A stretch of DNA of 64,000 nucleotides from Guillardia theta CCMP2712 (lineage: Eukaryota; Protista; Cryptophyta): assembly GCF_000315625.1 (NCBI RefSeq), contig NW_005434590.1, positions 275,950 to 339,949 of the forward strand. The letters are read 5' to 3'. A program made the translations under genes and the position numbers. Below the pieces are notes generated by a model. That model saw only the letters and a program-made list of their open reading frames with translations, was not told where the DNA came from and searched no databases. This document shows, one piece after another, positions 20,825 through 47,231 of the stretch (within the stretch, counting starts at the first letter, position 1; each line of letters starts with the position of its first letter).

Positions 20825-21400
20825 ATAAGAATGGTAAGGAGAAGGAACAATGTTTTTTAAACATTCAACTGCCAGCTATGTTGGGTGTTGAATAACTTTA
20901 TTCGGGTGGTGCCGTTGACCCGCGGTCACCTCTAAAAACAGCCTGTTAGGATGTGATTGCTTTGAAAGCAATCTCTAATGTTTTCATTTCGAGGTGTATG
21001 CAAAGAGCACACCTCACAAAACAGCCTGTTAGGATGCGGTTCATTTAGGGTGAATAGCATGATCCACAGGGAGATCGTCAGAAAGGATATGAGAAGGGAT
21101 TAATGCTCTGTGTGCTAGCGCACACCGCCAGCGCTAGCGCGCTTGGCTATGCCACGAGCGACACTGGTGGCATCCAACGATGGTCATTGACACTACGAGA
21201 GGCACAGGTAGCCTCCAACGAGGATCAGAGACGCTCCATCTCCCCCTGAGCAGGATTCCTCTCCATCTCCCCTAATTGTTCAGATTGGTCACGAAGAAGT
21301 ACCCAGGGTACTTGGTCAGCATCCCACGTGACCAGTTCTGACATTTTTCCCTATATTTGGCATAGGTGGTCATATACGTCATATACACTTTACCGCATGC
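20825..21400 (+). repeat. Left outer direct-repeat segment X
   Basis: Start (ataagaatggtaaggagaa), internal aacagcctgttaggatgtg and the last ~205 bp are shared in direct orientation with 46401-47231. Confidence 0.88.
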
Positions 21401-21979
21401 GGCTTTTTGCTATCTAATGAGGGTCGGAGGTAAGCCCTGCGCAGCTGGGCGGTGTGCGCAGCACACAGAGCAAGGGATCCTTTGTCAGTCATCACATAGC
21501 AACCCTCCACACAATCACAAACCCTCCACAAACCCTACACAAACCCTACACACAGCCTCTCCCTTACCATTATCATCTTACTTTCTATCTATAATCTAGT
21601 CTAAATATATGTATTGTGTAGGGTGTGTAGGGTGTGTAGGGTTTGTGATGAGTTCATCAAAATAAAAATAATTTCAAAGGGGGTAACTCAAATCAAACCC
21701 TACACCCTACACACTCTCCACACTCTCCACTAACTAGTCTTCTATGTACTAGATGATGATCATGGATGTTGGCGGAGGCGCGGAGGCGCTACCCCAAACT
21801 TTTCTACATCCTTTAATCCAACCCCTCCTCGCCATATGAAATAGTTTGGGGTAACGCCTCCGCGCCTCCGCAGCCCCTCCTACCCCAACTATCACAAAGA
21901 TTCCTTAATAATTTTTCATAAATCTCTCTTACATCACATCAGGTATTCAATAGAGTATTTATTCATTCTCTCTATCTTC
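21401..21979 (+). repeat. Left long inverted repeat (~580 bp)
   Basis: Imperfect reverse complement of 45827-46398. Confidence 0.92.
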
Positions 21980-22554
21980 TCTCTATCTTCTCTCTATCTT
22001 CTCAATCGCTATCTCCATCAATGGGAACAGGGGAACATCTGGTAATTTAAGCGGAGCACCGGTAACTTACGGGAAACTAGGGGTGGTAACTTATCTGGAA
22101 CTGGGGGTGGGGTAGGTGGTAACCTATCTGAAGTGTGGGGGGTGGGGTCATATAAATACCCCCAAGCAACAGTAATAATTCCTTTGGTGGTCAGCACACT
22201 TAGAAAAGTGCTCTCTGATAATATCGTGAGATCGATTCCTACTGATTCCTGCTCTATGACCTGATGAACTGGCGGGCACCCAGTGATTCGGGAAGTGGAG
22301 TCGGATGATGGGGGGGCCGGTTGTCCAAAGCTTGACGTCCCGATGCTCACTGGCTTGTCAGTGGGGTGCCCCGTCGGGTCTGATGGTGATGGCGATCGGT
22401 CTGACCACCAAAGGCCCGAGTAGTACTCTGAACCAGCCGCAACCATACCCGTTAGCCTAAGCCGTATTCAAAATAAAAACCGGGCAATTTTGCTCGAATT
22501 ATCAAAAAAATGATGACCATCGGGCAAAAAAGCTCAAGCGCTAAATGGTACTAA

Positions 22555-23025
22555 ATGATAGAGATTAATCAACAAGTCTTAAAATGCCCCTCCACCAACA
22601 CGGACATAAATGAGATCATCTCACACATCTATTGGGAAATCAAAGAAACCTACGACGAGGTCTTCATCGATGATATTGATGATGAAGATGAGATTGAGCA
22701 ACATAAGCGTATCATAGAGAGGGATGACCAAGACCTTGACTATGAAATCCATATGGCCATTGATAACTATGTTATTGATGAGCTTGATGACAAACGCTAT
22801 GCTATCATAACACAAGGCCGTGAGCCTCTGCTTGTATTGATGGAGTACATTGAGGAGTACGGCCAACCAAACTTGGATGATGCCCTCCTTAAAGCTGAAA
22901 GACTAAGAGGCATTGTTTCTTATCAGATCATATACGAGCAAATCCAAGCCTTGTTTTGTCAAGAAACCATAACAATTGAGATATCATCTATGATGGAGCT
23001 CATAGATATCTTAGATAAGGATTAA
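22555..23025 (+). CDS. PLV hypothetical acidic protein (156 aa)
   Basis: ATG ORF with partial promoter motif aaaaaaatgatg at ~22504. Confidence 0.65.
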   Translation: MIEINQQVLKCPSTNTDINEIISHIYWEIKETYDEVFIDDIDDEDEIEQHKRIIERDDQDLDYEIHMAIDNYVIDELDDKRYAIITQGREPLLVLMEYIEEYGQPNLDDALLKAERLRGIVSYQIIYEQIQALFCQETITIEISSMMELIDILDKD

Positions 23026-23069
23026 ACTGACAAGAAGAATAATATGTATCTATATTTTAATATTGCTCA

Positions 23070-23084
23070 AAAAAATGATATAAA
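23070..23084 (+). promoter_or_regulatory. PLV promoter motif AAAAAATGATATAAA (also 28562-28576, 28884-28898, 29209-29223 on +; 47008-47022 on -)
   Basis: Five exact 15-mers, each about 23-60 nt upstream of an ATG on the same strand. Confidence 0.8.
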
Positions 23085-23995
23085 GGATTGGCATATATAA
23101 CCATCAAACCAAAAAGAATAAATATCTAAGCCTATATCAAATAGATGGCACGCGAACGAAAAGCTCCTGAGTTGTTCAAACCAACCAACTTCAAGGCTAC
23201 GGCCAAAAAGGCTCCGGCACGGAAGGCTCCAATCCAGCCTACAAATGTCGTTCGACCAGTTCGACCTATTACTGTTCAACGAGCATCGCCAGCCGATGTC
23301 CCAGTCTTGGCTGCCATCCCTATCGACGAGCCAGTTCGACCATCCAGGAAGCCTGTTGCTAAGGAACCGCCAACCGTGGCTGCTGCTTCATCATACTCTA
23401 AGAAATATAGGCATCCAAAGGACTACAAGGATCTTAAAATGGTCAATGACCAGATCACAAGAGATATGAATCTAGCTGTTCATAATGTTGTATTCAAGAG
23501 ATATAAAGATGATGAACTCGACTTCACAATCTATGACAAGGCTTTGAAACTACAAACATCTCTTAGCCCATTCAATGGCCCAAACTCCTGGACGAGCAAG
23601 GTTTGCGGTCTCGACTACAAACCATCACAATATGACAGCCTACCATATCTTAACAGGCCTACACTTGCCGAGATCAAGGACAATGTCTATGTTGGCGAGA
23701 AATTGAGTGATTCCAAGACCGCATCTAATCTCAACACTATCATTAAGACAACGACTGCCCAAGTTGACCCCAATGATCTAACAACCGTCTTGAAGCACCA
23801 CAGACAGATCATCTTGGAGATGCTCCTTTATGCTCAGGAAAACAAGAGGTCACCAAGCACATACTGGGACTATATAAGGGCCTTGACAAGGCTTGCGAGG
23901 ATCTGCCTCGGTGATGATAACGAGCTTTATAAGAAGCTGGCTAAGCTCGGAGATGACTTTGACAAGGCTGTCATCAAGAACATTGAGACAAAGAA

Positions 23996-24922
23996 TGTTG
24001 AAGTTCCCAGTAACCTTCTCTCCACAGACGGTGACACAGTCACAGTAGCAGTGACACTCGAAGTAGACAGTGATAGCACCGACTGCAAGTTTCTGTAGCA
24101 GTGGTAATAGATATCACGAATGGCCGCGCAGGAATGATATCAGGATACAGAGAACAAACGGAGGTGATAAGAGATTGGTATAGATGGTCAAGCTTGTTTA
24201 CTTCAAGCAATCCAGTCTCACAGAGACCATACACCTCGTTCTCCTTTCCCTGTCCTGCCAATGCGTGCGGCGCTTCTTCCTCTTCCTCGGTCCCTAAAAT
24301 AGGGGCTGCCCGGTCCTAGGAACTACCACTACCGGTACTCTACGCTTCTTATCTGCGATATGATTCTTCGACCGGTCCGAGGCCTGGTTCCGTACCTTGA
24401 GGGTCCCCTGAGAAAGAGTCATAGGCTTGACATGACGAGGTTTTCGATTCTCATCCAACGCTCTCTGTGAAGTTGATGTAGCTGCTCCCTTGACCTTGAC
24501 AGGTCCTGTGTCTCCGTAGGAGCATGCTTGGAGGTGGTCTCGTGCATTCCTTGTATGTCCTCCGCTAAGATGATCATGATAGTACTGTCTTCTTTGATCA
24601 GACCCCTTGTTCTCCCATGTCCATGACTTCAGGGGTGATACTTCCAATCTCCCCTTGAGCGTAGCCGTATTCTGCCACCGTGACGGTGTCATCTGCTGTC
24701 CTGTCGTGGACTGATATAAGCTGACTCGCTTATCTCCTGCTGCCATCCACGAGTCCTAAGTTCTTGCTGTCTTCTTCATGATTCTCCTACGTCGTCCTTA
24801 TTGTAGCTGTTGCTGTCCTCTCCAGGGATGCATTCCGAGGCTCTAAGCATCTGTGCACTTGAGCCACGTCGATTACTTGGCATTGTCTGAGGTGAAGCTT
24901 CCTCCTATCAGGTGCTTCAACA
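23996..24922 (-). repeat. 3' LTR of the Copia-derived element
   Basis: No differences seen from 26601-27527; the spurious ORF translations are identical. Confidence 0.95.
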
Positions 24923-26600
24923 CCCTCCCTTGGCTCTTGTGTGCCGATGCCAGCATTGTTACTTTGCCGCGCCTCCATTGACGGTGTCAGGCTTGTCAAA
25001 TTTGACTATGCCTTTCAAATGACCTGCTGCGGTTGACTCTTCGCGCGTCGTCGCCGCAGTATTCCCTCCCTTGCCTAGAGTAGGCGGGAGCTGTTGCTTG
25101 ACAGCAAGGTGGGCTCATGCTTGGTCTCTGGTCGTCTGCCTTGAAGCTGTATGGTTGCTCATCAGACTTGATATTCCTCTTTCCATAAGCGATCAGCCTC
25201 TTGACTTGACTTTCGCAGTAGGGCTGTGCATGGTACTGAAAGGTTCTCCTCAGCGCCCATCAGCACTGATGTGCCTGGCGACTTGGGACCTCCTTCATTT
25301 CTGCAGCATCATTTCATAACTTCGATCGAAGGTATGTCTTCATCGTCTGCTTCTTCGTCTTGCGAAGGCTTGGCGCTTCAAGCTGCCTTTCATTTCTTCA
25401 ACTCTGCTGTAGAGTTGGTTCGTCACAGTGTCATCACGTCGCCATCACAATATAGTGGCTTGTAACGAGGCTTTGGGACGTCTCCCTTCCTCGGTCTTCA
25501 CAACCTTCAAGCTTTCATCTGCCGTGCTCTAGGCTTGCCGCTTCAATCATCGCGGTGCTTGACCAGTGGAATCATGAGGTAACCCGGTCCTCTCCTCACT
25601 GTTGGCCACGTACAGGCTTTGAGGTTGGATTGAAAACAGCTCTTGTCACTTTTGACATTCAGAGCAACTTTGATCAGGACTGATCCCTCCATCATCGAGA
25701 TTTTCTCGCTGTCATGTCACCCCTCAGCTTCTTTGCCACACTCATCATCATGGTGGGAGAGCTATCTGGTGGCCTCGTCGTCATCTTGTGCGACTCCTGG
25801 CTCTGCTTGGCCCGGGGATCCCTGTGACTCGTCCATGTCACTTGACATAGGGATGATGCGAGGCTCGATGCTGATGTCATCATCAGATGTTCTCAGAGGT
25901 TCAGCCTGTCATGAAGTTCAGTATTCAGGTATGATAGTGAAAAGATATGATATTCCCTGATTTTGATTGTTCATTTAGTGAACCCTCCCTGACTGTCTCT
26001 GGTGTCGAACAGATGACCTCAGGCTGAAGTGGGTCCCCTGTGACTTCGCATCATCCATCTCCCTCCCTGACGAGGTGCAGGGAGCTTGGCTAGCTTGACA
26101 AGGTCTTGCATGAAGCAGCGGCGTAATGATGGTCAAACGGAGACCTGAGACATGTCGTTGCCGAACAAGAACGATGCTAGCTGACGAATTTTGGAGACTG
26201 GGCAGATCTTGGTGAGAATGTCCGCAGGGTTGTATGTAGTAGAAATCTTCACAGCGATGATTTCGTTTTCATCCACACTCGTTCGAGTGTACGGTGAAAA
26301 ACGGATTGAGCGTACCCCACATTTCTTCCTCCGTCTTAAAAACATTGTTGCCCGAATTTTCCTTAAGCTTAGTCAGGTCGATACTTGTTTTTGAGAAAGC
26401 TTCATGAATTTCCATTGCCATTTTGATATCAGAACCCATGTTTGACTCCAGGCTCAGCTGTTACTACCGTTGTCACTCCACAGATACTCTCCAACTGATG
26501 TCACTCCGAATGTGAGAGTAAGAGTCCACTGGTTGCCGTGATACAAGGTTTCTCGAGAAATAGAATATCTAGGCACTGATATTCTAAAAATTTTAGAATA

Positions 26601-27527
26601 TGTTGAAGTTCCCAGTAACCTTCTCTCCACAGACGGTGACACAGTCACAGTAGCAGTGACACTCGAAGTAGACAGTGATAGCACCGACTGCAAGTTTCTG
26701 TAGCAGTGGTAATAGATATCACGAATGGCCGCGCAGGAATGATATCAGGATACAGAGAACAAACGGAGGTGATAAGAGATTGGTATAGATGGTCAAGCTT
26801 GTTTACTTCAAGCAATCCAGTCTCACAGAGACCATACACCTCGTTCTCCTTTCCCTGTCCTGCCAATGCGTGCGGCGCTTCTTCCTCTTCCTCGGTCCCT
26901 AAAATAGGGGCTGCCCGGTCCTAGGAACTACCACTACCGGTACTCTACGCTTCTTATCTGCGATATGATTCTTCGACCGGTCCGAGGCCTGGTTCCGTAC
27001 CTTGAGGGTCCCCTGAGAAAGAGTCATAGGCTTGACATGACGAGGTTTTCGATTCTCATCCAACGCTCTCTGTGAAGTTGATGTAGCTGCTCCCTTGACC
27101 TTGACAGGTCCTGTGTCTCCGTAGGAGCATGCTTGGAGGTGGTCTCGTGCATTCCTTGTATGTCCTCCGCTAAGATGATCATGATAGTACTGTCTTCTTT
27201 GATCAGACCCCTTGTTCTCCCATGTCCATGACTTCAGGGGTGATACTTCCAATCTCCCCTTGAGCGTAGCCGTATTCTGCCACCGTGACGGTGTCATCTG
27301 CTGTCCTGTCGTGGACTGATATAAGCTGACTCGCTTATCTCCTGCTGCCATCCACGAGTCCTAAGTTCTTGCTGTCTTCTTCATGATTCTCCTACGTCGT
27401 CCTTATTGTAGCTGTTGCTGTCCTCTCCAGGGATGCATTCCGAGGCTCTAAGCATCTGTGCACTTGAGCCACGTCGATTACTTGGCATTGTCTGAGGTGA
27501 AGCTTCCTCCTATCAGGTGCTTCAACA
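26601..27527 (-). repeat. 5' LTR of the Copia-derived element
   Basis: Direct repeat of 23996-24922. Confidence 0.95.
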
Positions 27528-28608
27528 GAATCAACTCAACATAGACGAAGAGAGAAACTTCTTACCGTATTCATACCTGTTGAATATGATCGATGATATG
27601 GAGCAAAAATACCTTGAGGCAAAAACTAGATACGGTCCACAAGGCTATCATACATACAAGCTACATATGAACACTTTGATCTTAATGTCATATCTGTATA
27701 CGCCACCCCTGCGTTTGGAGCTATCTAATGCCCGCTTCACTAAGACCCTAAGAAATTTAGAACCAGGCAAAAACTACATATACATTCCGCAAAATGGCAA
27801 ACTGGTCAAGTATGTCCTGAATGAGATCAAGAAGAAACACAAACCAATCGAATATGATGTTGGATATCCTATGAATGATGATCCTTTGGCAAAGAGGCTT
27901 ACCGAGTTCATCAAGATGTCCCTTCGTGAGTATCCAAGGGAATACTTCATAACCCTTTATACTGACAAAAATAAGCCAGCTAAAAAAGCAATGACAACAT
28001 ATCTCTCAAGTATGTTCGCTGACCATTCCTTGAACGTGAATATGTTCCGCTCTTCCTACGTGAGTTGGTTGTACTCGAACAATGTTAGCACGAATATATT
28101 GGAAGAAGTGGCATTGAAGATGCGAACAAGCATCTTGACGTTTATGAAGAATTATAAGAAGCTGAATTCTGAACAGATTAGGGTCAAGAGGGAAAGAGAT
28201 GATGATAACAGACCTATTACAATCAATGAGGCGGATGATTCACCAGCGGCTCGGGGGCCTGTCGCAAATCCTATTGCTGCCATTCCACAACCACAACCAA
28301 GACAACCCCATAAGGAGTACAAAGACCCTATCGTCTTAAGACGCGCCAGGGTGAACCGTTACATTGAGAAGACAGGCGGTAGAGAGGCCTTCAATGAGCG
28401 ACAGAAAAAGTACTATAAAGAGAACAGCAAAACTCTATACATCAAGAAACTGTTGAGGATGTACAACACCACCAAGGAGGCAATAGATCCTATCCAACAT
28501 ACCATAAAGAAGTATAAGCTCTACAAGGAAGGGAATGAATGGAAATCTCTGGAGCTTGGGTAAAAAATGATATAAAACAGATATGATAAATATTATATTG
28601 ATAGAGTG

Positions 28609-28875: not shown

Positions 28876-28926
28876 AAAATGAAAAAAAATGATATAAAGT
28901 ATTTAGCAATAATATTATATGATCAT

Positions 28927-29142: not shown

Positions 29143-29263
29143 TTCATACAGTTTTTTTGAAAGCATGCTATATTTTACTATTTGTTCTCATTTTTTGTGT
29201 TTTGCCATAAAAAATGATATAAAGATTTCAGCCATAAAATTATCTAACCTAAGAATAAAGGCA

Positions 29264-31588
29264 ATGAACGGTTCAAGCGGTTTGAACAATTACCACTATC
29301 TTTTGAAGAAAGGCTTTGCTTTGACAGCTGTCCACCCCCGCAAGTATGAGGGCGATCGGTTTGTCAAGGGAAAGATCGACGGAGTTGATAAGCCTTATAT
29401 TGATGCTGGTTGGACTAAACAAGAAGTTAATGAGGGGAATGCTTCGGTAGTCTACAACATTATCAATGACAAACCATTCTATGCTGTCCGAACTGGTGAG
29501 ATATCAAACATTATCGGCGTTGACATCGATAGTGACAAGGCTGAAAAAGATGGTATCCCTCGCTCTTTGGAGTTTGAGGAGTGGTGTAAGGCTTCTGGTA
29601 CATATACCATCAAGTCCCCACACGGATATCATTTCTATTTCAGATATGATAAAGATATTAGTAAGAGCGGATCGATACTCGATCATATTGACATTCAATC
29701 AAATGACAAGTGCCTCTTTGCTCCAAATGTCAAACGGGTTGATGGTGTGTATGAAGTCATAAATGAAGCACCTGTAAAGGCAATGCCTGATAAAGTCAAG
29801 AGCTTTATTCTTAAGCATAAACAAACCAGAGATTGTGGGATGGCTGCCAAGCAAGAGAAGGCACCCGAAGCACCCGTCAAAGGTCCTAAAAGTTCAGATG
29901 GGGATGCTGAGGATAGTGAAATAGATGTTGATGATGTTAAAAAGTTGCTCAACCTCATCTCTCCTGATTGCGATTACAATCGTTGGATCAGGGTCCTCGC
30001 GGCAGTCAACAACACTCTCGGTTCTAATGATAAGGCCTATGATATCACCGATGAATGGTCCTCAAAATCTATCAAATATGACCCAAGATCATTTGGTCGT
30101 ATTTGGAACTCGGTAAGGGGCTATGAAGAGATTACAATTGGCACCTTACATCACTATGCTAAGGAAGAACAACCTGAACAATACAAGGAATTATTTGCGC
30201 ATAAAAAAACGAGCATACCAAGAGTTGATATCAGCAAATTGAGGAAATATGAGGATATCAAGGAAGCTTTTGAAAAAGATACGTTTATGGTTTGTATCCC
30301 TCCCGTATATTTTCATAAAAATCGCTATGGTGATAAATACACAGTTGTGAAAGAGGATGGCATCAAACAGGCATATAGGCATCTCAGGTATATCAAGAAT
30401 GTCGGAACAGATAATAAGGGTAATATCAAGACAAAAGAAGCAAGCTTCATCACTGACTGGGTTTCCGACCCTGATAAACGCGTTTATGAATCAGTGAAGT
30501 TTGATCCAAGCAGGAAAATAGATTCTGATATATTCAATACTTTCACTGGATTTGAGGCCGAAAAACATCCCGAAATTGATGAGACGCTTATGATGGAATT
30601 GGTACAACCATACATTGACCACTTTGATATGCTCTTTGGCAGTGATGCTAGAATATTCGTTATGAAATGGATGGCGAACATCATCCAAAATCCAACTCAA
30701 AAATCTGGTGTTTGTTTGCTTTTGAAGAGTGAAGGAGAAGGTTCCGGAAAGACCACACCATTTGAGTATTTCGGAAGAAAGGTGATTGGAAACAATCATT
30801 ATAAGAACACCAGTGACCCAGAAAACGACCTCTTTGGTAGATTTGCTACTGCGATTCACAACTCATTGCTTGTCCAACTTGAAGAGATTAAAGGTGTCGT
30901 GTTTCATAAAAACGCTAGTACGTTTAGAGATATGATAACCAAGAATACAGCACGATGGGAGGTTAAAAATGTCACTGTCAAAGACGATGATGAGAACTTT
31001 GCGAGCTTTATATTAACCACCAACAATGAGAACCCTATAACTGTCACTCCAACTGATAGGCGCTTCTGTGTACTAAATGTAAATGAAGCTATGATTGGGA
31101 ATGTTGAATACTTCGAAAGATTTATTGAAGTGGTAGAACATCCGTCTTGGGGCAGGGCGTTGTTTCAATATCTTAGAGATTTGGAAGGCGTGCCAAAGAA
31201 CATCGCCCAATTCCAAAACCAAAGATATAAAAGCGAGGCTTATGATGATATGCGAAAGCAAAACATCCCTAACTGGGCCAGGTTCTTGATCAATAAGGTG
31301 ATGCTCAAAACTTCTCTCATCAAGAACAACTCTGTTGAAATCAAACCAACAGAAGATGTAAAAGCTAGTAAATTATATGATGAATACGTTCAATACTGCG
31401 AGAAGACACGTGTTGAAGCTGCGACAATGAAACAGACTGGATTTGCTATAAAGATTAAGTCTGTTGAGGGGATCATAAAACAGAGAAGTAGATTATGTTG
31501 TAATTATACGATTGATTGGGAAGCTGTTGAAAAATGGCTTGTCAAAAAGAATTACTGGGATGATGATAATATCACAGTAGAGATATAA
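29264..31588 (+). CDS. Primase-polymerase + PriCT-2 + SF3/D5-like helicase fusion
   Basis: GVDIDSD and SPHGYHFYF (Prim-Pol); DYNRWIRV...DEWSSKS.KYD...ITIGTL (PriCT-2); GEGSGKTT, VQLEE, TTNNEN, DRRF (helicase). Start placed at ATG 29264, after the promoter motif. Confidence 0.9.
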   Translation: MNGSSGLNNYHYLLKKGFALTAVHPRKYEGDRFVKGKIDGVDKPYIDAGWTKQEVNEGNASVVYNIINDKPFYAVRTGEISNIIGVDIDSDKAEKDGIPRSLEFEEWCKASGTYTIKSPHGYHFYFRYDKDISKSGSILDHIDIQSNDKCLFAPNVKRVDGVYEVINEAPVKAMPDKVKSFILKHKQTRDCGMAAKQEKAPEAPVKGPKSSDGDAEDSEIDVDDVKKLLNLISPDCDYNRWIRVLAAVNNTLGSNDKAYDITDEWSSKSIKYDPRSFGRIWNSVRGYEEITIGTLHHYAKEEQPEQYKELFAHKKTSIPRVDISKLRKYEDIKEAFEKDTFMVCIPPVYFHKNRYGDKYTVVKEDGIKQAYRHLRYIKNVGTDNKGNIKTKEASFITDWVSDPDKRVYESVKFDPSRKIDSDIFNTFTGFEAEKHPEIDETLMMELVQPYIDHFDMLFGSDARIFVMKWMANIIQNPTQKSGVCLLLKSEGEGSGKTTPFEYFGRKVIGNNHYKNTSDPENDLFGRFATAIHNSLLVQLEEIKGVVFHKNASTFRDMITKNTARWEVKNVTVKDDDENFASFILTTNNENPITVTPTDRRFCVLNVNEAMIGNVEYFERFIEVVEHPSWGRALFQYLRDLEGVPKNIAQFQNQRYKSEAYDDMRKQNIPNWARFLINKVMLKTSLIKNNSVEIKPTEDVKASKLYDEYVQYCEKTRVEAATMKQTGFAIKIKSVEGIIKQRSRLCCNYTIDWEAVEKWLVKKNYWDDDNITVEI

Positions 31589-31611: not shown

Positions 31612-31827
31612 CAACCCTACACAAAATCACAAACCCTACACAAACCCTACACACTCTATTTTCCTTACCATAACAATGTCATTATATTATTTTATTTAGT
31701 ATAAATAGACACTAGTGTGTAGGGTGTGTAGGGTGTGTAGGGTTTGAAATGAGTTGAGGGAAATAAATAAAATAAAAAAAAGGGTAACTCATTTCAAACC
31801 CTACACCCTCCACACCCTACACACTCA
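31612..31827. repeat. Internal copy of the ACCCTACAC iteron module (putative replication origin)
   Basis: Same forward-reverse-forward repeat layout and spacers as ~21500-21730. Confidence 0.75.
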
Positions 31828-33314: not shown

Positions 33315-34166
33315 CTAATTAATGTTCATATACTGAGTTATGATCAGATACAGTTCCTGGAGATAGTCAACGATCCTCATCAATAATCTCAAAACCTTCT
33401 CTTGATAGATATTTGAATCATTCTTTACTTTCTCGAACCTAAGGTGTAAGAAGAAATCATTGAATCTTTCGAGAGTTCTATTTTCCTCATTCGTTAGCCT
33501 AAGCGTAAACTGATCGATTGTATCTGATTGAGTGTTTATTATAGACCTCCATCTGCTATCATAAGGAGCTTCATAATTGATAAGAGAATTGGGTGCTTGA
33601 TTCACGACAAATGAAAACAATATATCGTTGGGATAGAACTGATCGGTCTCGATATTTGCTAATCCACTCTGATTCAGCCCAATATCCCCATCGATCCTCA
33701 TAAATATAAGCTGATCCGATGTCATATTGATTGGGAAATCGCTATACACTCCATCAGTTGTAATAAGGATATCCTCATCATTGTTGAATCCTAAGAACTG
33801 TGAGCAGTTGACACACCTAAGAGTGACATTGTTTCCTGTATTGCTAGCAAAAAACCACTTGTTAAGCCTTGGAATATATGACACATCTATCTTTTCGTTC
33901 AGCTTGGTCTTGAGCTCCTCCTCCAGCTCATATATATTTGGGTTGCCCTCATCAAGTCTCACTAGAACATCATCAATCATAATAGTATCGTTGTAACCAT
34001 ACTGAATGTTCTTCCAAGAAATCACAGACTGGAACGAGACAACTGAGACTACCCACGACTGATTTCTTTTGCTTTGAATGTAACTGTTTGGGAGGTTGAC
34101 CATAACAACACCACTCGATTTAATACAGTTCTTCGAGTTAATGAAAAGATTAACCGTGTCTTCCAT
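33315..34166 (-). CDS. Minor capsid (penton-like single jelly-roll) protein
   Basis: LFINSK, NI..G.ND, GNPNIYEL and terminal F.LRLTNE...F.L.L.F patterns typical of PLV minor capsid proteins; position in the structural block. Confidence 0.75.
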   Translation of the reverse strand: MEDTVNLFINSKNCIKSSGVVMVNLPNSYIQSKRNQSWVVSVVSFQSVISWKNIQYGYNDTIMIDDVLVRLDEGNPNIYELEEELKTKLNEKIDVSYIPRLNKWFFASNTGNNVTLRCVNCSQFLGFNNDEDILITTDGVYSDFPINMTSDQLIFMRIDGDIGLNQSGLANIETDQFYPNDILFSFVVNQAPNSLINYEAPYDSRWRSIINTQSDTIDQFTLRLTNEENRTLERFNDFFLHLRFEKVKNDSNIYQEKVLRLLMRIVDYLQELYLIITQYMNIN

Positions 34167-37307: not shown

Positions 37308-37841
37308 TTATTTCAACCAATTAGGCTGGTTCGATTTGTTAGAGATAAGCTGATCAGCACTCCAAGGTCCCGTATCTTTTTGTAACTCGATCTCCTCGTC
37401 GTAAACCACGAGGGTAAAGAAGAGCTGTTCAATATCCACCTTGGTAATGTTCATAAGATTGATGCGAAACTGATTGGTTCCTGATAAGAAGTTCTCCTTA
37501 CACTTCCAGTTCTTTGATATCTTTGGGTTATAGTTTTGATATGAGACAGTCGCGGCATCTTTGCCAACATTGAATAGCACAGCACCATAGATGCCATTGC
37601 CCTTGCTATCAAATGTAAGGGATGTATCAACATCATTTGTATACAGATAGACGATATCTGTTGTGTCAACCTTCTTGATATATAAGGAATCCAATACAAT
37701 CCTAGCATGTTCAGACAGGATTTGACCGGTTGGATTCTTGATCTGCCAAGTTAGAGTGGTAGCCGAATCGCTGGTCTCTTGTACATCATTGATATCGAAG
37801 CTGAGGTGTATCAATTTCTTAGGCCTGAAAAGTTTAGGCAT
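37308..37841 (-). CDS. Putative small beta-rich structural protein (minor capsid-like), paralog of the 1025-aa protein termini
   Basis: Shared LF.PKK, LS..ARIVL, GA.L, YQN....KN.K, VYDEE and DT..W motifs. Confidence 0.75.
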   Translation of the reverse strand: MPKLFRPKKLIHLSFDINDVQETSDSATTLTWQIKNPTGQILSEHARIVLDSLYIKKVDTTDIVYLYTNDVDTSLTFDSKGNGIYGAVLFNVGKDAATVSYQNYNPKISKNWKCKENFLSGTNQFRINLMNITKVDIEQLFFTLVVYDEEIELQKDTGPWSADQLISNKSNQPNWLK

Positions 37842-37860
37842 TTATATAACTGGCATATTT

Positions 37861-38169: not shown

Positions 38170-38172
38170 CCA

Positions 38173-39084
38173 TTAAAATTCTAGGATTCTATCCCAACAT
38201 CTCAAGAAGTGGCCACCATCTGGGCACCTAGGGTGGTTGTTTACGGTAAGCCAGTTATACTTCTCTTCAATACAGTGTTCATATAATTGTTCAAACACCT
38301 CTGGTTTTACTAGGCCGCTGATCTCGTCATATATACCTTCCATAATCACCTTCTTGTTCATACATCGATATATCATATACACATCGATGTTGTTTCGTAC
38401 GATCTTTGGGATGGATTTGAGATTTTGAGTTGTGAATATCATATTGATGCCGTAATGCCTATGCTTGATTAGGAAGTTGCTAAGCTTGTTGTTCTTCTTT
38501 GTGTTGAAGGCCTTGTTATCTGAGATGAGATCATCGAAGACAAAGAACACCACAGGTGGCTTCTTGTATTTAAGATTGCCAAAGGCGACATCAGGCTCTT
38601 GGAAATCGTACTTATAGAGCAATTCAAGTTCATCCATTGTCAATCTGTCTTCACCGACCTTCATCCATCTGCTATAAGCCTTCTTATACTGATCATATTC
38701 CTCTATGTCCTTCTTTATCTGCTGGACCTCATCAATCTTCTCTTGGAGTTTATCCTCAGAATACTCATCAACAACATCATTCTCAAGGTCTAGCTGCTTG
38801 ACTGTCTCTAATATGGTATTGGATTTGCTCTGGACGGTAGGAGAGAACCACACCACCTTGATATCGATCTTCTTGCTATCCTCTGGGTCATAGAACGGGT
38901 ACTTTTCATAATGGTGGAATAATTTCGCTATCCCGAATGTTTTACCGCAATTCTTAGAGGCTACCGCAAGTATTGAACAGTACACAGGAGGCAGGAAAGG
39001 ATTATCGGAAGTTGGAAGCTTATTCTTCTTGTAAGGTTTAGGCTTGTTATCTAGCAATGGTATCTGGTGCTCTGTTATATCCAT
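38173..39084 (-). CDS. A32-like (FtsK-HerA) genome packaging ATPase
   Basis: Walker A ASKNCGKT, Walker B FFVFDD, RHYGINMIFTTQ, IPKIVRNN. Confidence 0.93.
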   Translation of the reverse strand: MDITEHQIPLLDNKPKPYKKNKLPTSDNPFLPPVYCSILAVASKNCGKTFGIAKLFHHYEKYPFYDPEDSKKIDIKVVWFSPTVQSKSNTILETVKQLDLENDVVDEYSEDKLQEKIDEVQQIKKDIEEYDQYKKAYSRWMKVGEDRLTMDELELLYKYDFQEPDVAFGNLKYKKPPVVFFVFDDLISDNKAFNTKKNNKLSNFLIKHRHYGINMIFTTQNLKSIPKIVRNNIDVYMIYRCMNKKVIMEGIYDEISGLVKPEVFEQLYEHCIEEKYNWLTVNNHPRCPDGGHFLRCWDRILEF

Positions 39085-39643: not shown

Positions 39644-39681
39644 TTGTAAGAAAGTAAAGAAAAAAAAATTACTTAAATTGC

Positions 39682-40026
39682 TCAAGGGCCATGAACTGGC
39701 CGAGCCATCTTTGGAACATCCTTAATATTGTGCTTAGTGTACATCACAGTAACATCACGATTACCCACCATCTCTTGAAGCATTGGTTGGAAATCCTCGT
39801 AGTTAACATCTGGCCTCGATTGCTTGGAGTTGTAGATGTCACGCTTAAAAGCTGTGTCACGCTGCTGATAATAGTTAGAACTGGTAGGATAGGGCATTTT
39901 ATTGATATCATCGTTTGGATGGATCCGCGGGTTCACAGTGTGATGATCGACTTTATTCACTTCGATATCTAGGAAGCTTAAATGGTTCTTGTAACCATAG
40001 CTGAACGTGCTTGGTTGGAGATACAT
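39682..40026 (-). CDS. PLV hypothetical protein (114 aa)
   Basis: ATG ORF directly after the major capsid gene. Confidence 0.65.
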   Translation of the reverse strand: MYLQPSTFSYGYKNHLSFLDIEVNKVDHHTVNPRIHPNDDINKMPYPTSSNYYQQRDTAFKRDIYNSKQSRPDVNYEDFQPMLQEMVGNRDVTVMYTKHNIKDVPKMARPVHGP

Positions 40027-40062
40027 TCTTCTTTTAATCTAATGCGAGATTATTTAGTCTAG

Positions 40063-41560
40063 TTAATTGATACTAATTTGGTTTCCTGAACCGATAGTCA
40101 AATGTCTTGTTTCACAGCAGATGATAAGAGGTAACCATACCTGGTCTGAGGAACTCTTACCAGATGTAACGCTTCCTCGCGTGGACCACTCGATAGAAAC
40201 AGGGAGCTGCCTTGTGTCGAGGCCTGAAATAACCATAGTGCCTCCCGCATCGCCAACGTGCGATAAACTAAGGGTGTCGCAGAAGAAGTACTTCACATAA
40301 TCGCTAATACTCTTATTCCCAGCATAAAAACCAAGATCAGCAGACTGATGAAGATTGAATGCTTCAACTGTGTTCTGAATACAGTTCATCAGATTGGATG
40401 GAACCTGTGGTAGCTTCTCAGATCCGATGGTCCATTGGCTGGTGACGAGCTCTTCACCATTCCTTTGGAAGTATACGGTTTGGTTGAAGGTGTTTTCTGA
40501 TGGTCCTAGGATAAGGGCCTCTCCAAGGGTTTTGTCAGTTGGTAGCACAAATCCACTCACTTTAGAGAGATCATCGCGGTCAGCCCTGATGAATGTCCCG
40601 ATCATATAATCGAGACTATCGCTTGCGATTGTGAACCGTGTCGTTTGCGACTTATACGGGCTTGCCTGGCCAAAGAATGTGGTATAGTTTGGAAAATAAA
40701 GCTCGTAATTTGTCCCTTTCATAAGCTGATTTTTAAGGCCCTCATAATACCATCCAGGCATATTGATTTTGGTCACGTTGGCTTTGATGTCGCTTAGCTT
40801 ATAGCTTGGGGCTGGAAATATATTCTCGCTTGCTGTTGTAGAAGTAGTTCCTTTAGAATTTCCCAAAACAGCAGCACTTGCAAATGTGATGCTGATCTGA
40901 ACTTGACCAATCATTGAAGTATCTATGACGTTAATGTTTCCTTGCTGTAGGACACCTAAGAAATTTTTGATGAAATAAGTTGATCTGTCCTTAACAAGAT
41001 TGCTATCAAGAGCTGTTGTGCTAACAAATCTTGCAAATCGTGCGTATGTACTAATGGTGCCATCATCATTGACAACGCTCTTGCTCGAGGGATCCACATT
41101 CAGACCACAGCATTGAGCGCGGCCCATAGCATCTTGGTTTAGTGCCACAATGTCAAACAAGATGTTCTGGATCATGGCATAATCGGTGATCACGGTGCTG
41201 AACCACAACGCCATTGAATTTTATTTGTATCTCTTGGATAAGACTGTAAGTGTTCCTCGGGAATCGGAGAGATGTCACAGATTGTGACCCAGATGCTCCT
41301 GATAGAACACCGTTTGTTGTCTCTCCAGTAAATTCCAAGCTAAAGGTCGACAGATCAAGCAATGAAGAGTAAGGCAACGTGATCTGGATCTTCTGGTTAG
41401 GTCCAACCGTGGAGGGCGTGGTAGGCGTGATTTGTATCTTGGTTTTCGACATGTTCGCTAACGAGCGCACCCGCCATTGTAAGTTAGTTGGAACGTACAT
41501 TCCAGCCGTTTCAGGAGAGGGCCCAGACATTGCGGCTTGCGACATTGCGTTTTGAAACAT
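40063..41560 (-). pseudogene. Major capsid protein (double jelly-roll, PgVV-like PLV type), frameshifted near 41190
   Basis: Two overlapping ORFs. N-part has ITLP..SLLDL.TF and FPRN..SLIQ.I.I..NG; C-part ends SGLDTR...HLTIG.G.QI. Removing 4 nt gives a 497-aa protein. Confidence 0.82.
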
Positions 41561-41607
41561 CTTTGCTTTTAAAAGACAGACAGAAAAAAAAATAAGATTT
41601 CAAATTC

Positions 41608-42417: not shown

Positions 42418-42441
42418 TTATCTTATTGATTGAAATTATTT

Positions 42442-45400
42442 TTAACTACAATGATATGAACATCCTATGAAAACAGCTATATACTCAACTCCTTGGTAAG
42501 TCTCATATCGATGCTTAAAATTCTTGTAATACCAATCTGAATCTTCATCAATAAAATCAACTGAACAGCTTGTCTTGGCTACTGTATAATTATGAAGTAA
42601 ATCATCAGATTGCTTCATACTGTATCCCTTGATTGGACTTGAACATAGATAATCGCCATTCTCTATGGCTTCAACGCCATAATTACAGCACCATATAGCC
42701 CCCTCGCCGACCGCATTGATCATAACTCTATTGTTGTCAAGCTTAGGATATGAATAATGCCACCTTCCAGTCTTATAGATTCTTTTATCTCCTCCCTCCA
42801 CGTTGGAGATCACACCATACACAGCTTTGTCACATTGAATGTCTGTTAATTTGATTATTGGCAGCGAGCTATCAATGCGAATGTTAGAGCTAAAATCATA
42901 ATCTGTTCTATTCAAGTCTTGATAAAATCCAGTGGTAGAAACCAATAGACCCTGATAGTAGTCAAGGTTAGATGTTATCTCATCTAATAGATTTGAGGTT
43001 ACAGCAATACAACGATGAGAGCCCGTGAAGTCTAGATCATCATTGGCATTGTCATTATGTCTCAACCATTGCTCACCTGTATCATCTAAAGCACCATATT
43101 GAAACATCAAATCATTTGTTGCGCTGGTTCCTCCAAATGATACAGAATTCAATAATTTATAAATAACCCATTCTCCACTATCAACAGCACCAGAACCACC
43201 CTTGGGTATATAGATACGGTCCAAGCTTATTCCAGTACATTTGACATAATTATCTGTTATTCTTCCCCATTCTCCAAGATTTAAATAACCTTGATCATTC
43301 ATTGAAATACCTTTGTAAATAGCGCATCCACTAGATCGTCCATAAAGTCTTGTCCAAGTGCTGTCACTCTGTAAAATTTCAGTGCCTGAAATATGATAGC
43401 TCCCATCTGTTTCAATGTTGCCAGTAGATGAAATTGATGAAGGACTAAAAGCACCACAACTCAATGTGCCTGAACAAGTAACATTTCCTATCAAAAATGA
43501 TGTTAGGCTAACATACAAAGTGCCTGTGACCTCCAAATCATCGGCATAATCTGTGGCGACTAGATTCCCATTGACGGTCAAATCTCCCGAGCATGTAACA
43601 TTACCGGTAAAGGATGATGTGCCTGTTACACTTAGATTATTCCCACAGCTTACGGCTCCGGTTAAGGTTGATGTGCCTGATATGCTTAGATTGTTTGCGC
43701 AATTGATATTAGCAGCAAAATCAACATCAACGGTTATAGTTCTAAAATCAAAATTGGTTCCATGTGGATAAATCTTAATAACCTCTCTTTCTTTTACAAG
43801 AGCACCATATCCAGACATACCAGTTGCTGAAAATCCTTGATATGGATTTGCTTTATCACCTCCAAGTATTGATATAGAAGCATAAGTTGCTCCCTTTGTG
43901 ATTGTTTCAGTTGCTGAACCACTTGCCCAAGTTGATGAAGTGTGAACATGAAAAGCTAAGTTTGTTTTCCTATTTGTTCTTTCATCTGATGGTGTGCCTA
44001 AACTGTTTTGAATAACCAAGGATTTGCTTTCAATCCACGTATTATTGTTTGCTTCATCAAGAGCAACATCAATATTATTTTTGTACTTCCATCTATTATT
44101 GACATCGTCATAAATGCCCCATTCATTATTGCCATCATGCGTAAATACAACCCTGCCATCAATGCTGTATCCTTCCCAATTATTAGTTCCTGAACCATTG
44201 ATTTGAACACTGCCATATTGACCTGAGACAGTTGATAAATAGTTTGTATCGTTGATGTATAGATCCCCAACTCCAATGTTCAACCCATCAATATATTCCT
44301 TGGTGTAATAGTTCTCGTTAGAAGTGTCAATCTCGGTCTTGGTGTAATAATTGGGTAAAACAACATCATCAAGAAACAATGTCTTACCTTTGAAGATTGT
44401 TTTGTAGTCTCTCAAAACATTGATCATCTCAATAATACCACCAGAGGTTTCGCTTTCCTGTAGTGTAAAACCAAACACATGTTCATCTAATTCTGTTTGT
44501 GTCAGTTCATTCCCTAGTGTTAAGATCTCCTCGCCTTGGAATGATATAAGCCTGCTATCTAATTCAGTAGTAGGGTTTCCTTCAACATCGATCTTATATG
44601 TGCTATCATATACATATGCTTCGCCAGCAGCTAGATTGAGTTGTGATCCATCTGTTGTGTTGCGTGAATATATCTTGATTGCTCTGTCTTGATGAAGTCT
44701 ATGTATTATCTCTGTCTCTAACAGATTTATAACAGTGCCAATAGCAAGTCGTAAAACATTGATCCAGTTCAATAAAAACAAGCCATCGGCCTTGCTAGTA
44801 TTCAAGGATGAAGCTATCAACCCCCCAACAAAACCAGCACCAGCGGAAGCAAAGTCGCCCAGCCCAGAGAAGATATCGAATGCGCTATTTGCTGTATCAA
44901 CTATATCTCCAAGATTGGCTTCATCATCTGGGTTTGATATGCTGTTAACACTATCTACTAGTCCATTGATGCTATCAATGATGTCCTGAACAGTAATATA
45001 TGAGCCATCTTGCTTTCTCAAACTGATTGTATAGGTAGCCGCTTGATCATCATAGAGCAATTGGATCAGATCGGAGTCATTGTTGAACAGTGCTGTCAAT
45101 GTTTGATTGTTGGCATTCTCAGCTAGGTTTATGATAGATTGTAAGGTAGATATTGCGTTGGAGTTGTTTTCAACATCACTTGATAAATCTGTTATTGTTG
45201 ATTGTAAGGTGTCAATGCTCGTGGTGTTGGCATCAACACTTGTTTGTAGGGTGTCAATGCTCGTAGTGTTGGCTTCAATGCTCGTTGCGTTGGCTTGAAT
45301 GTTCGCTGCGTTGGCTTCAATGCTCGTTGCGTTGGCTTCAATGCTCGTTGCGTTGGCTTCAATGCTCGTTGCGTTGGCTTGGATATCATCTGTGTTTGTA

Positions 45401-45516
45401 CTAACAACACCCTCCAATGCTTTATGTGCCTCATCTAATTTGATGATAGCTGTTTTAAGAGAACTGATCTGATATTGAACTGTATCAACAGACAAGCCAC
45501 TGATCCAGGTGCTCAT
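42442..45516 (-). CDS. Fibre-like protein (1024 aa) with heptad coiled coil and C-terminal chaperone/autocleavage-like domain
   Basis: ANATSIE 21-nt repeats (~45205-45380), G.L.V.G beta repeats, C-terminal FTGSHRC...GEGAIW...NGDYL.SS...GC.YHC typical of large-DNA-virus fibre proteins. Confidence 0.75.
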   Translation of the reverse strand: MSTWISGLSVDTVQYQISSLKTAIIKLDEAHKALEGVVSTNTDDIQANATSIEANATSIEANATSIEANAANIQANATSIEANTTSIDTLQTSVDANTTSIDTLQSTITDLSSDVENNSNAISTLQSIINLAENANNQTLTALFNNDSDLIQLLYDDQAATYTISLRKQDGSYITVQDIIDSINGLVDSVNSISNPDDEANLGDIVDTANSAFDIFSGLGDFASAGAGFVGGLIASSLNTSKADGLFLLNWINVLRLAIGTVINLLETEIIHRLHQDRAIKIYSRNTTDGSQLNLAAGEAYVYDSTYKIDVEGNPTTELDSRLISFQGEEILTLGNELTQTELDEHVFGFTLQESETSGGIIEMINVLRDYKTIFKGKTLFLDDVVLPNYYTKTEIDTSNENYYTKEYIDGLNIGVGDLYINDTNYLSTVSGQYGSVQINGSGTNNWEGYSIDGRVVFTHDGNNEWGIYDDVNNRWKYKNNIDVALDEANNNTWIESKSLVIQNSLGTPSDERTNRKTNLAFHVHTSSTWASGSATETITKGATYASISILGGDKANPYQGFSATGMSGYGALVKEREVIKIYPHGTNFDFRTITVDVDFAANINCANNLSISGTSTLTGAVSCGNNLSVTGTSSFTGNVTCSGDLTVNGNLVATDYADDLEVTGTLYVSLTSFLIGNVTCSGTLSCGAFSPSSISSTGNIETDGSYHISGTEILQSDSTWTRLYGRSSGCAIYKGISMNDQGYLNLGEWGRITDNYVKCTGISLDRIYIPKGGSGAVDSGEWVIYKLLNSVSFGGTSATNDLMFQYGALDDTGEQWLRHNDNANDDLDFTGSHRCIAVTSNLLDEITSNLDYYQGLLVSTTGFYQDLNRTDYDFSSNIRIDSSLPIIKLTDIQCDKAVYGVISNVEGGDKRIYKTGRWHYSYPKLDNNRVMINAVGEGAIWCCNYGVEAIENGDYLCSSPIKGYSMKQSDDLLHNYTVAKTSCSVDFIDEDSDWYYKNFKHRYETYQGVEYIAVFIGCSYHCS

Positions 45517-45536
45517 TTAATTAGAATGAAGATTAA

Positions 45537-45770
45537 TTAAAAATGGAGATAGACAGTTTCCTTTCTTATGCCAACACGGCACCGTTTTTTCCTATATGTA
45601 TGGGTGAAGCTCGATCGCTCATAATAACTGATCTGTTCCTTAGTCAGAAGCTGGTTTTGAATGAAGAATTGTAAGATATATTGATTTCTAAAGATGACCT
45701 CAATAAGATCCTTGATGAATGTATTGTATTCTTTTTGTTTTATGCGATAGATATGTTGAGCCTCATTCAT
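45537..45770 (-). CDS. PLV small hypothetical protein
   Basis: 77-aa ATG ORF at the head of the structural block. Confidence 0.5.
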   Translation of the reverse strand: MNEAQHIYRIKQKEYNTFIKDLIEVIFRNQYILQFFIQNQLLTKEQISYYERSSFTHTYRKKRCRVGIRKETVYLHF

Positions 45771-45826
45771 TTATACAATATCAATAAAATAATCTGAGTG
45801 GGGGTTCCGCCCCCCAACGGCGGTGG

Positions 45827-46398
45827 GAAGATAGAGAGAATGAATAAATACTCTATTGAATACCTGATGTGATGTAAGAGAGATTTATGAAAAATTATTA
45901 AGGAATCTTTGTGATAGTTGAGAGGATAGGGGTATAGTTGGCGGAGACGCGGAGACGTTACCCCTAAATATTTCATATGGCGAGTAGGGGTTGGATCTAG
46001 GGGTATAGAAAAGTTTGGGCTAACGTCTCCGCGTCTCCGCCAACATCCATGATCATCATCTAGTACATAGAAGACTAGAAGTGGAGAGTGTGGAGGGTTT
46101 GGAGTGTGGAGGGTATGATTTTGTTTACCCCTTTGAAATTATTTTTATTTTGATGAACTCATCATAAACCCTCCACACCCTCCACACCCTCCACAATACA
46201 TATATTTAGACTAGATTATAGATAGAAAGTAAGATGATAATGGTAAGGGAGAGGCTGTGTGGAGGGTTTGTGGAGGGTTTGTGATTGTGTGGAGGGTTGC
46301 TATGTGATGACTGACAAAGGATCCCTTGCTCTGTGTGCTGCGCACACCGCCCAGCTGCGCAGGGCTTACCTCCGACCCTCATGAGAGAGCAAAAAGCC
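45827..46398 (-). repeat. Right long inverted repeat
   Basis: Imperfect reverse complement of 21401-21979. Confidence 0.92.
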
Positions 46399-46400
46399 TT

Positions 46401-47231
46401 ATGAGAATGGTAAGGAGAATGAACAATGTTTTTGATAAGAAAAGAGAACCCAACTAAGTTGGGTGCTGCTGAACAGCCTGTTAGGATGTGCTTGCTTTCA
46501 AAGCAGCGCGGGTCACCATTAACATTTTATGTCTTCTTGTATCTTGATGTCCTAAAAAGTGCCCTCTGCTTATAGACATTCCACATTCGCACGGTATTTT
46601 TTCTTTCATCATATTGGCATAACGGCTGACGCGCTCAGCAATCTTCTCCTTGTTCTCATCTCTATATTGCTTCTCAGTTCTTCCAGCGACAAGCTTATTG
46701 AGATTGCCAATCTCACGGATTAATTCTCCCTCTCTCTTGCGTAATTGTTGAACATTATCACAGGGATGTTCTTCGTAGAGTTCAATGTACCAATCATCCC
46801 AGCTGGTCTCACGGATCCTTTGATAGAGTTTCATATTGTAGCCTTTTTCATTAGGATCGAAGCAGTGCTGTTTATGACCTGCCCATCTCTTGCTAAGTGG
46901 TTGAATAGTAGAACCAACATATATGAGTGATGTATCAGATCGACATCTGATAGTATAGATAACCCCTTTTGAGTAATCAGGCATTCGTTTTTATACTTCC
47001 TGATACGTTTATATCATTTTTTCGACGAGAGGCACTGGTAGCCTCCAACGATGGTCAGTGACGCTCCATCTCCCCCTGAGCAGGATCCCTCTCCATCTCC
47101 CCTAATTGTTCAGATTGGTCACGAAGAAGTACCCTGGGTACTTGGTCAGCATCCCACGTGACCAGTTCTGACATTTTTCCCCTATATTTGGCATAGGTGG
47201 TCATATACGTCATATACACTTTACCGCATGC
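46401..47231 (+). repeat. Right outer direct-repeat segment X' (carries the GIY-YIG gene)
   Basis: Shares start and ~205-bp end with 20825-21400. Confidence 0.88.
46481..46984 (-). CDS. GIY-YIG endonuclease with C-terminal zinc-finger-like motif
   Basis: GVIYTI...IYVGST...KRWAGH...RE...LN; CECG...H....RH. Confidence 0.9.
   Translation of the reverse strand: MPDYSKGVIYTIRCRSDTSLIYVGSTIQPLSKRWAGHKQHCFDPNEKGYNMKLYQRIRETSWDDWYIELYEEHPCDNVQQLRKREGELIREIGNLNKLVAGRTEKQYRDENKEKIAERVSRYANMMKEKIPCECGMSISRGHFLGHQDTRRHKMLMVTRAALKASTS

Follow-up and report, generated by a model that had tools for sequence, protein, structure and literature searches.

Directly oriented end segments outside the long inverted repeats of a PLV integrated in Guillardia theta: candidate attachment sites and a proposed route of integration

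PLVs that encode a tyrosine recombinase (YR) and carry long inverted repeats (IRs) are by convention bounded at these repeats, and circular donors have only been proposed for them. A putative TSD has been reported for 10 of 232 YR elements, in one cryptophyte cluster (Bulzu 2025, PMC12220804). The bounds in that work are set at the IRs and TSDs are sought in 50 bp of flank only, so that segments of the kind described here would go unnoticed; circularisation is proposed there for YR-PLVs. Yutin et al. 2015 (PMC4642659) describe three elements integrated in Guillardia theta, each with a YR that is divergent and lies close to one of the ends, one of the YRs being disrupted by a Copia-like LTR element, and their text gives TIRs for these PLVs 1-3, with no direct repeats or GC core. 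The YR junctions of phaeoviruses are CC-CC or GC-GC, those of FsV-158 being GC-GC (PMC13236599).

The current analysis concerns one integrated locus in one assembly of the cryptophyte Guillardia theta, within a 64-kb window that is the whole stretch of DNA analysed. The assembly gives the order host-GC-X-GC-IR-core-IR'-TT-X'-GC-host. X (20825..21398, + strand) and X' (46401..47229, + strand) are directly oriented end segments, and the long IRs, left (21401..21979, + strand) and right (45827..46398, - strand), are not terminal. A GC at the left host junction (20823..20824, predicted attL core) and another at the right (47230..47231, predicted attR core) enclose the element; inside it a GC separates the end of X from the left IR (21399..21400) and a TT, not GC, separates the right IR from the start of X' (46399..46400). 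The left flank ends and the right flank restarts at the identical base of a host repeat unit, and six sister units in the window are empty, each with the same single GC. One of these (50542..50561, + strand) serves as the pre-insertion reference, and this empty-site control yields base-exact candidates for attB, attL and attR.

The IRs lie 576 and 833 bp inward of the host junctions and GC is the sole repeated sequence, as an earlier note on this DNA had claimed on both points. Its observation of GCGGC at both junctions also holds: the five bases that come after the end of X read alike in the host and at the IR, and a 10-bp palindrome that runs from the X end into the adjoining bases has two occurrences in the 64 kb, at 21393 and 47224. 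The host junctions are formed by the start of X and the end of X', and both ends recur at the internal joints. Terminal IRs with a TSD of 5-6 bp, as in elements of the Polinton/Maverick type, are not found at this locus; a two-base GC marks each host junction and stands singly in the empty site, as in the phaeovirus type. The element contains no N letters, and all four junctions, host and internal, are those of the assembly.

The core encodes a primase-SF3 helicase (29165..31588, + strand; Pfam PriCT_2, 2.3e-17, and DUF5906, 5.4e-12) and a packaging ATPase-like (A32-like) protein (38173..39084, - strand; Pfam Zot, 9.3e-08, with Pox_A32 at 0.0035, below the cut-off). A likely major capsid protein gene (40063..41560, - strand; 100% to GUITHDRAFT_144246) has one frameshift near 41190 that splits it into two frames relative to the homologue P0002. 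Its eight homologues are all unnamed or hypothetical and no Pfam match was obtained, and we infer the capsid label from size, neighbours and published papers; two minor capsid candidates (33315-34166 and 37308-37841) also have no Pfam match. Genes with PF19058, SLATT and laminin-G domains occur together with the primase-SF3 helicase and no pPolB, as in the three published G. theta elements, and neither pPolB nor the rve integrase was matched among the 24 element ORFs scanned with Pfam. With its YR gene split by an LTR element, the locus is likely to be the PLV with the LTR-disrupted YR of Yutin et al. 2015, so that the virus itself is known and what is new is its ends. Table S6 of Bulzu 2025 (PMC12220804) gives no GIY-YIG (PF01541) for three complete G. 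theta PLVs, which implies that the published bounds likely stop at the IRs; Fig. 1 of Yutin 2015 (PMC4642659), which lies outside the scope of this analysis, may bear on these bounds. In viral contigs no related DNA was found for the X-end pattern or for the capsid, recombinase, GIY-YIG, ATPase and primase queries, and nothing related was found for the capsid and recombinase alignments in metagenome contigs or for the recombinase in phage records.

The tyrosine recombinases share the catalytic set R-K-HxxR-H/W-Y. The predicted YR gene of this element is in two parts, an N-terminal part (23145..23994, + strand; 47% to residues 7-287 of the homologue P0009 by tblastn) and a C-terminal part (27528..28563, + strand) with catalytic-like R, K, R and Y. 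These positions are invariant in all eight aligned sequences, and the two histidines are not canonical. In the Atlas the recombinase scores 0.96 to a cluster of which 57% is Phage_integrase, and for ResT/TelK the score is 0.94; a Foldseek search with its model ranked Cre first, albeit at an E-value of 0.064. A second model gave nothing clear, a VIA search returned generic helical bundles, and no match was found among Pfam, PHROG or PDB sequences. Confirmation of the predicted gene as a YR is weak. The two parts are separated by an LTR element (23995..27527, - strand) with 928-bp LTRs that are 100% identical, its Copia label being that of Yutin 2015 (PMC4642659). As this insertion splits the recombinase gene, the integrated copy is likely to be immobile in cis now; the other G. 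theta element has an intact recombinase (GUITHDRAFT_145933).

Three blocks in the same order are common to X and X': a start of 33 bp (93.9%), a block of 34 bp (94.1%) and an end of 210 bp (96.7%). This agrees with the shared start and near-identical end of about 205 bp claimed earlier; the middles of the two segments are unrelated. X is non-coding and has two internal duplications. X', its interior backed by contigs from two runs, carries a GIY-YIG endonuclease gene of 167 aa (46481..46984, - strand; Pfam PF01541, E 1.7e-07), an ORF absent from the earlier note. Upstream of this gene is a 13-bp motif (47009-47021), expected 1.2e-4 times in X' from composition, that is the motif of the recombinase and primase genes. 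All five of its matches in the 64-kb window fall inside the element, where they precede, or lie at the start of, the recombinase gene, the primase gene, the GIY-YIG gene of X' and two small genes. A 41-bp block of X (21104-21144) is related to the outer IR (score 49; none of 300 shuffles exceeded 30); the X' start and a motif within IR' are alike at a score of 27, below the shuffle maximum of 30, and this likeness is not counted. The closest named relatives of the GIY-YIG protein (62-65%) are from the cryptophyte Hanusia phi, which is also the source of capsid and recombinase homologues. The 13-bp motif, the IR-related block and the Hanusia phi relatives tie X-type DNA to the virus, and X and X' are likely to be viral DNA; together with the junction positions, the motif and the block speak for the earlier view that such DNA belongs to the PLV. 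A reading of X as an intron or structured RNA was dropped, because all 11 matches of an Rfam scan fall below the gathering scores and outside X and X', and the conserved X end folds no better than shuffles (z -0.25 to -1.2).

The left and right IRs are 90.6% identical over 585 columns. An internal partial copy (31612..31826, + strand; 78.5% over 200 bp), direct to the left IR, closes the recombinase-primase module, and the left IR follows this copy rather than the right IR at 14 of 16 informative sites. By these sites the IRs are of mixed origin. The identity and the grouping with the internal copy argue against frequent recombination between the IRs, and the invertible small arm of 2-micron type suggested earlier finds no support. 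The differences between IR and IR' and between X and X' are too large for decay after insertion: at 1.5-4.5% divergence about 11-32 new stops would be expected in 4,962 codons, and the decay seen amounts to one frameshift and one LTR insertion, the long ORFs having been picked by length, which biases the test towards intactness.

The empty host site matches the palindrome of the abutting IR ends at 15 of 20 bases, a score reached only by the six sister sites among 36,622 host positions; at a threshold of 13 of 15 bases, which the empty site attains, none of 19,040 control positions qualifies. The match is offset by 3 bp from the crossover GC, and in register it falls to 12 of 20, equalled or exceeded by 49 of the 36,622 positions; the motif was defined after the junctions were seen. 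The host site resembles this palindrome.

Our main reading, to which we give a probability of about one half, is a one-step integration of a circle whose closing junction would be X' end-GC-X start, with the predicted recombinase acting there on the two-base GC core. A single crossover at this junction would yield both host junctions. The circle would hold the IRs in its interior, with the tandem X'-X as the small arm between them, and the unit that bears the two recombination arms would be X. The joints within the element, X end-GC-IR and IR'-TT-X' start, may be older attachment junctions that arose when X entered the palindrome of the abutting IR ends that the host site mimics, and X' would have acquired a GIY-YIG gene that is under viral control. 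No lox-like symmetry is seen at the predicted closing junction, which offers a 6-bp palindrome and a 5-bp inverted motif with uneven spacing. The earlier suggestion that a YR integrates a circle through a very short core fits this layout and has a precedent in phaeoviruses (PMC13236599). Integration driven by homing was set aside, as the left X is without the GIY-YIG cassette. By read depth there are about three X-family copies vs about three close copies of the right part of the core, fewer than two X per element would require, and this argues against the one-step reading, as do the weak identification of the YR and the confinement of the data to one locus. A circle junction is likewise absent from the 12 joints and the read records listed, as are the four assembled junctions, though such gaps prove nothing.

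A broader and more tentative proposal is that X is a separable attachment cassette of the PLV lineage, moved by the viral recombinase, which can stand in tandem, carry cargo and lend the virus its integration site. Such a cassette would plug into the palindrome between the IR ends and pile up in tandem; its cargo might be, for example, a homing endonuclease, and solo copies in host DNA, with transcription, would also be possible.

The alternative that the earlier note preferred, in which the left X is a landing pad or scar, is not needed, since one crossover suffices, and we consider it unlikely, though the strongest of the rivals. A resident solo X would have received the circle IR-core-IR'-X', either through the shared 210-bp homology or through the YR at X end-GCGGC, like an IS26 translocatable unit. 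The identical five bases after the X end in the host and at the IR suit this route, and about three X copies suit one X per virus better than two. The X' interior is confirmed in two independent runs, in whose reads the X-type alleles have a depth of roughly one copy and include a third X allele elsewhere, which is transcribed and joins 46505 to 47025 (depth 74.7 vs about 90); RNA reads cover X-type sequence and not IR', and the RNA records listed include none of the core, which says nothing about its expression. Against this, the third allele is only a candidate solo X, two events are needed at one site whereas six near-identical sister sites are empty, and a solo X still requires the X end-GC-X start junction to arrive.

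An improbable variant has the circle IR-core-IR'-X' entering through the X' end-IR joint by a five-base GCGGC core, with a free X inserted later at the left junction. GCGGC is indeed present at the right host junction, at the X end-IR joint and in the empty site, and the left junction, being a hybrid, would look like the IR-end palindrome; the route nevertheless demands a second, independent insertion of X at exactly the left junction, and at the one locus no X-less left end is seen. Two alternative circle junctions are predicted, X' end to X start in the main reading and X' end to IR start in the landing-pad route and in this variant, and they are distinguishable from each other; X and X' differ near 47036, 47135 and 47184.

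There is similarly little probability of X being a host transposon foreign to the virus, with insertions at the two ends of an ordinary TIR-bounded PLV. The extra copies of X, the RNA reads, the short imperfect inverted repeat formed by the ends of X and its G+C (47.7%, above the 40.1% of most of the core) agree with this, but the viral-type motif on the X' gene and the IR-related block do not, nor does the lack of an Rfam match in X or X'; both copies would also have had to hit the PLV-host joints precisely and in the same orientation, with the six sister sites of the same left flank left empty. That X appears twice only through mis-assembly is very improbable: the region is repeat-rich, and no read record among those listed bridges a junction, but X and X' differ over most of their length, independent read sets contain both allele types at a depth of about one copy, and the element is gap-free with flanks that meet at the same host-unit base.

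The earlier note suggested that this would be an unusual PLV strategy. Circular integration of PLVs by a YR and YR-PLVs with terminal direct repeats are already published. No description of direct segments outside PLV IRs was found in the papers searched, in a scope that leaves out figures, bioRxiv supplements and subscription papers. If the layout is general, the bounds and gene counts published for elements of this kind miss their true ends, and we predict that TIR-delimited YR-PLVs without TSDs may be mis-bounded; if the cassette proposal is true, many of these hide their true ends.

The yeast 2-micron plasmid is a circle with the YR Flp and long inverted repeats that are identical and flip. 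The IRs of the G. theta locus, at 90.6% and of mixed origin, differ from the near-identical repeats of this type. The YR-PLVs of Tyrannomonas regina (PMC12747079) are close in their cryptomonad host, YR and primase-helicase, no clear TSD and terminal direct repeats of a few hundred bp (246 and 287 bp). Those repeats are 100% identical over their full length and replace the TIRs, whereas X and X' are diverged alleles with three shared blocks, one with a gene, outside long IRs. The cryptophyte cluster C1 and other YR-PLVs (Bulzu 2025, PMC12220804) likewise have long IRs and mostly no TSD. In phaeovirus proviruses of brown algae (PMC13236599) a YR integrates a circle with two-base homology; these viruses are giant and have one attP, the core of which shows clear inverted repeats, and no duplicated end cassette, and their circles are seen in reads, whereas at the G. 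theta locus the core symmetry is short and uneven and the circle is a prediction. KolobokP (PMC9587614) and IS26 units (PMC7986276) hold cargo between two direct end units that have their own ends and occur as solo units and multimers, and KolobokP has a homing endonuclease; they use DDE transposases, not a YR, and are not viruses. If the cassette proposal is true, the G. theta element would be a eukaryotic virus built like a composite transposon.

The Polinton-like virus (PLV) interrupts a 3.3-kb host repeat unit, with the left flank ending and the right flank restarting at the same base of this unit. The order along the assembly is GC at the left host junction (20823-24), end segment X (20825-21398), GC (21399-400), left inverted repeat IR (21401-21979), core, right inverted repeat IR' (45827-46398), TT (46399-400), end segment X' (46401-47229) and GC at the right host junction (47230-31). 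Self-comparison of the window has recovered both the long inverted repeats (90.6% identical) and the near-identical end of X and X' described in the earlier note, the latter as a direct 210-bp match (21195-21403 and 47025-47234, 96.7%). GC alone is repeated at the host junctions, as had also been claimed, and the window's six sister units lack the insertion and have a single GC each. X and X' further share a 33-bp start and a 34-bp block; their middles are unlike, and X' contains a GIY-YIG gene. Hairpin-forming inverted repeats inside IR at 21772-21871 and 21615-21722 (32-bp arms, 93.8%; arrays of 8-10 bp units) are possible origin elements.

At 100% identity, the likely capsid ORF matches GUITHDRAFT_144246 of Guillardia theta CCMP2712, which identifies this cryptophyte as the host. 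The 24 element ORFs scanned include primase-SF3 helicase, A32-like ATPase, PF19058, SLATT and laminin-G genes, with no match to pPolB or rve. A gene with seven longer homologs, labelled tyrosine recombinase (YR), is split by an LTR element (23995-27527) that has a short non-coding interior and 100% identical 928-bp LTRs; only 3 bases seem repeated at its ends, against the usual 4-5. In Yutin et al. 2015 (PMC4642659), three PLVs of G. theta carry a divergent YR, which a Copia-like element has disrupted in one case; we infer that the present PLV is this one. One frameshift (41190-41195), either an assembly error or a real break, splits the likely capsid gene relative to homologs of 474-482 aa. 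Contigs of sequencing run X1 at 44500-45300 are 96-98% identical at 2-3x single-copy depth; the large gene there is closely shared by other G. theta elements, though the other capsid recovered has just 55% identity.

Our own tests point weakly to a YR. R, K, R and Y-like positions are invariant in 8/8 aligned rows, the Atlas neighbours are Preplasmiviricota, Phage_integrase (0.96) and telomere resolvase (0.94) clusters, and Foldseek ranks Cre first (E 0.064). Further tests (Pfam, PHROG, PDB sequences, VIA search, a second model) gave nothing significant.

The host unit carries a gene for a Crinkler/RHS-like protein of 630 aa, and the insertion falls ~70 bp downstream of the stop codon in a truncated copy. 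When the two IR ends are abutted around GC, they form a palindrome that agrees with the empty host site at 15/20 bases, a value that only the six sister sites attain among 36,622 host positions; this register sits 3 bp off the crossover GC. In register with that GC the match is 12/20, equalled or exceeded by 49 of the 36,622 positions. A 13/15 sub-match is attained by 0/19,040 control positions given the same offset freedom. These matches suggest, without proving, that one enzyme made the internal and host joints. In the region 47230-64000, 3.3-kb units that each have a Crinkler/RHS-like gene of 630-644 aa form an array. Its layout is a large inverted duplication in which 47230-54401 pairs with 63608-56465 (96.2%) and a unique centre of 1.5 kb lies between. 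A chromodomain Ty3/gypsy retrotransposon (13197-19508; 574-bp LTRs, 99.5% identical) lies shortly upstream of the truncated unit holding the PLV. The window also has a near-perfect 68-bp tandem repeat (10711-11155) and, outside the element, an assembly gap of 909 bases (1490-2398).

We give a probability of about 0.5 to a donor circle closed at X' end-GC-X start. Such a circle would recombine at the host GC by a single crossover over two bases of homology, which would account for both host joints. The donor was presumably circular, with the YR acting on the X ends, and this closing junction is our proposed choice. Phaeovirus circles have been shown to integrate through two bases of homology, one with GC-GC junctions (PMC13236599), and the two-base GC at the present host joints is a phaeovirus-like feature.

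The earlier note had instead proposed a mobile circle IR-core-IR'-X with an invertible small arm, the left X being a landing pad or scar. The landing-pad route is a tentative second choice, and the unhomogenised IRs argue against active flipping of the arm. Divergence is 9% between the IRs and 3% between the shared X ends, and the long core ORFs are open apart from the frameshift and the LTR insertion, where decay of 1.5-4.5% would be expected to give 11-32 new stops in 4,962 codons. An internal IR-like copy (31612-31826) agrees with the left IR at 14/16 informative sites. The two ends of the element, the left one carrying the YR-primase module, therefore probably derive from different lineages, in keeping with published module-swap models. 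The internal copy, a partial third IR, and the left IR are in direct orientation and bracket the YR-primase module.

A route in which the circle integrated through GCGGC and X inserted afterwards is improbable. Like the landing-pad route and the circle closed at X' end-GC-X start, it treats X as an end unit of the virus and places the IRs internally.

Equally improbable is that X is an unrelated transposon. Viral signatures of X and X' link such DNA to the PLV. The 64 kb contain five copies of a 13-bp A-rich motif, a putative promoter, and every one lies inside the element. Two precede the YR (23071) and the primase (29210), two lie ahead of or at small genes (28563, 28885), and the fifth, on the minus strand in X', is 24 bases ahead of the GIY-YIG start (47021). 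Composition predicts ~1.2e-4 copies in X', for a motif chosen after its matches had been seen. A 41-bp block of X (21104-21144) resembles outer IR' (46327-46367) with a score of 49; the highest score among 300 shuffles was 30. The closest named relatives of the GIY-YIG gene are from Hanusia phi, also the source of capsid and YR homologs. The counts in Bulzu 2025 (PMC12220804) give 0 for PF01541 in three complete G. theta PLVs, and the published bounds therefore likely leave out X'.

A mis-assembled X duplication is very improbable. Reads were compared over one interval (44500-48500) in 4 of 24 listed runs. The GIY-YIG cassette is found in contigs of two runs with no substitutions (depth ~90 in run X1). 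Reads also show two X-specific features, the loss of one base at 47184 (depth 111 of 286) and a 41-bp duplication. In a third X allele, which lacks the cassette, 46505 is joined to 47025 (depth 74.7). RNA reads (6% of run X11) fall on X-type sequence, with a non-X' base at 47036 in 11/11, and 10 carry the third allele's continuation; within the interval none fall on IR'. Those at 46376-47179, from an X allele without GIY-YIG, are of one strand and low depth, seemingly confined to X, and possibly represent a small non-coding transcript. Summed contig depth, a poor copy measure, suggests that the X family has about 3 copies and the right part of the core 2-3 close ones. Among the read records listed none bridges a junction or a circle joint; the table is insensitive, because the X-to-IR joint present in the assembly is also absent from them, and the element junctions rest on the assembly. 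A contig of run X6 (freshwater metagenome; 45351-45797) leaves the core's right end into sequence here found only inside the left IR; inner IR bounds therefore vary among relatives.

This element has likely been described before. YR-PLVs without target site duplications and their proposed circular donors (PMC4642659, PMC12220804) are already known, as is tandem integration of PLVs. Gezel-14T has a GIY-YIG gene and direct repeats near its end, and composite-like units are described for KolobokP (PMC9587614) and IS26 (PMC7986276). The literature searched contains no account of direct end segments that have diverged, lie beyond long IRs and come with a two-base core. The YR-PLVs of Tyrannomonas have identical terminal direct repeats of 246-287 bp (PMC12747079), whereas the end segments of the G. 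theta PLV are diverged and lie outside long IRs; this arrangement, together with the two-base core, is what is new at this one locus.
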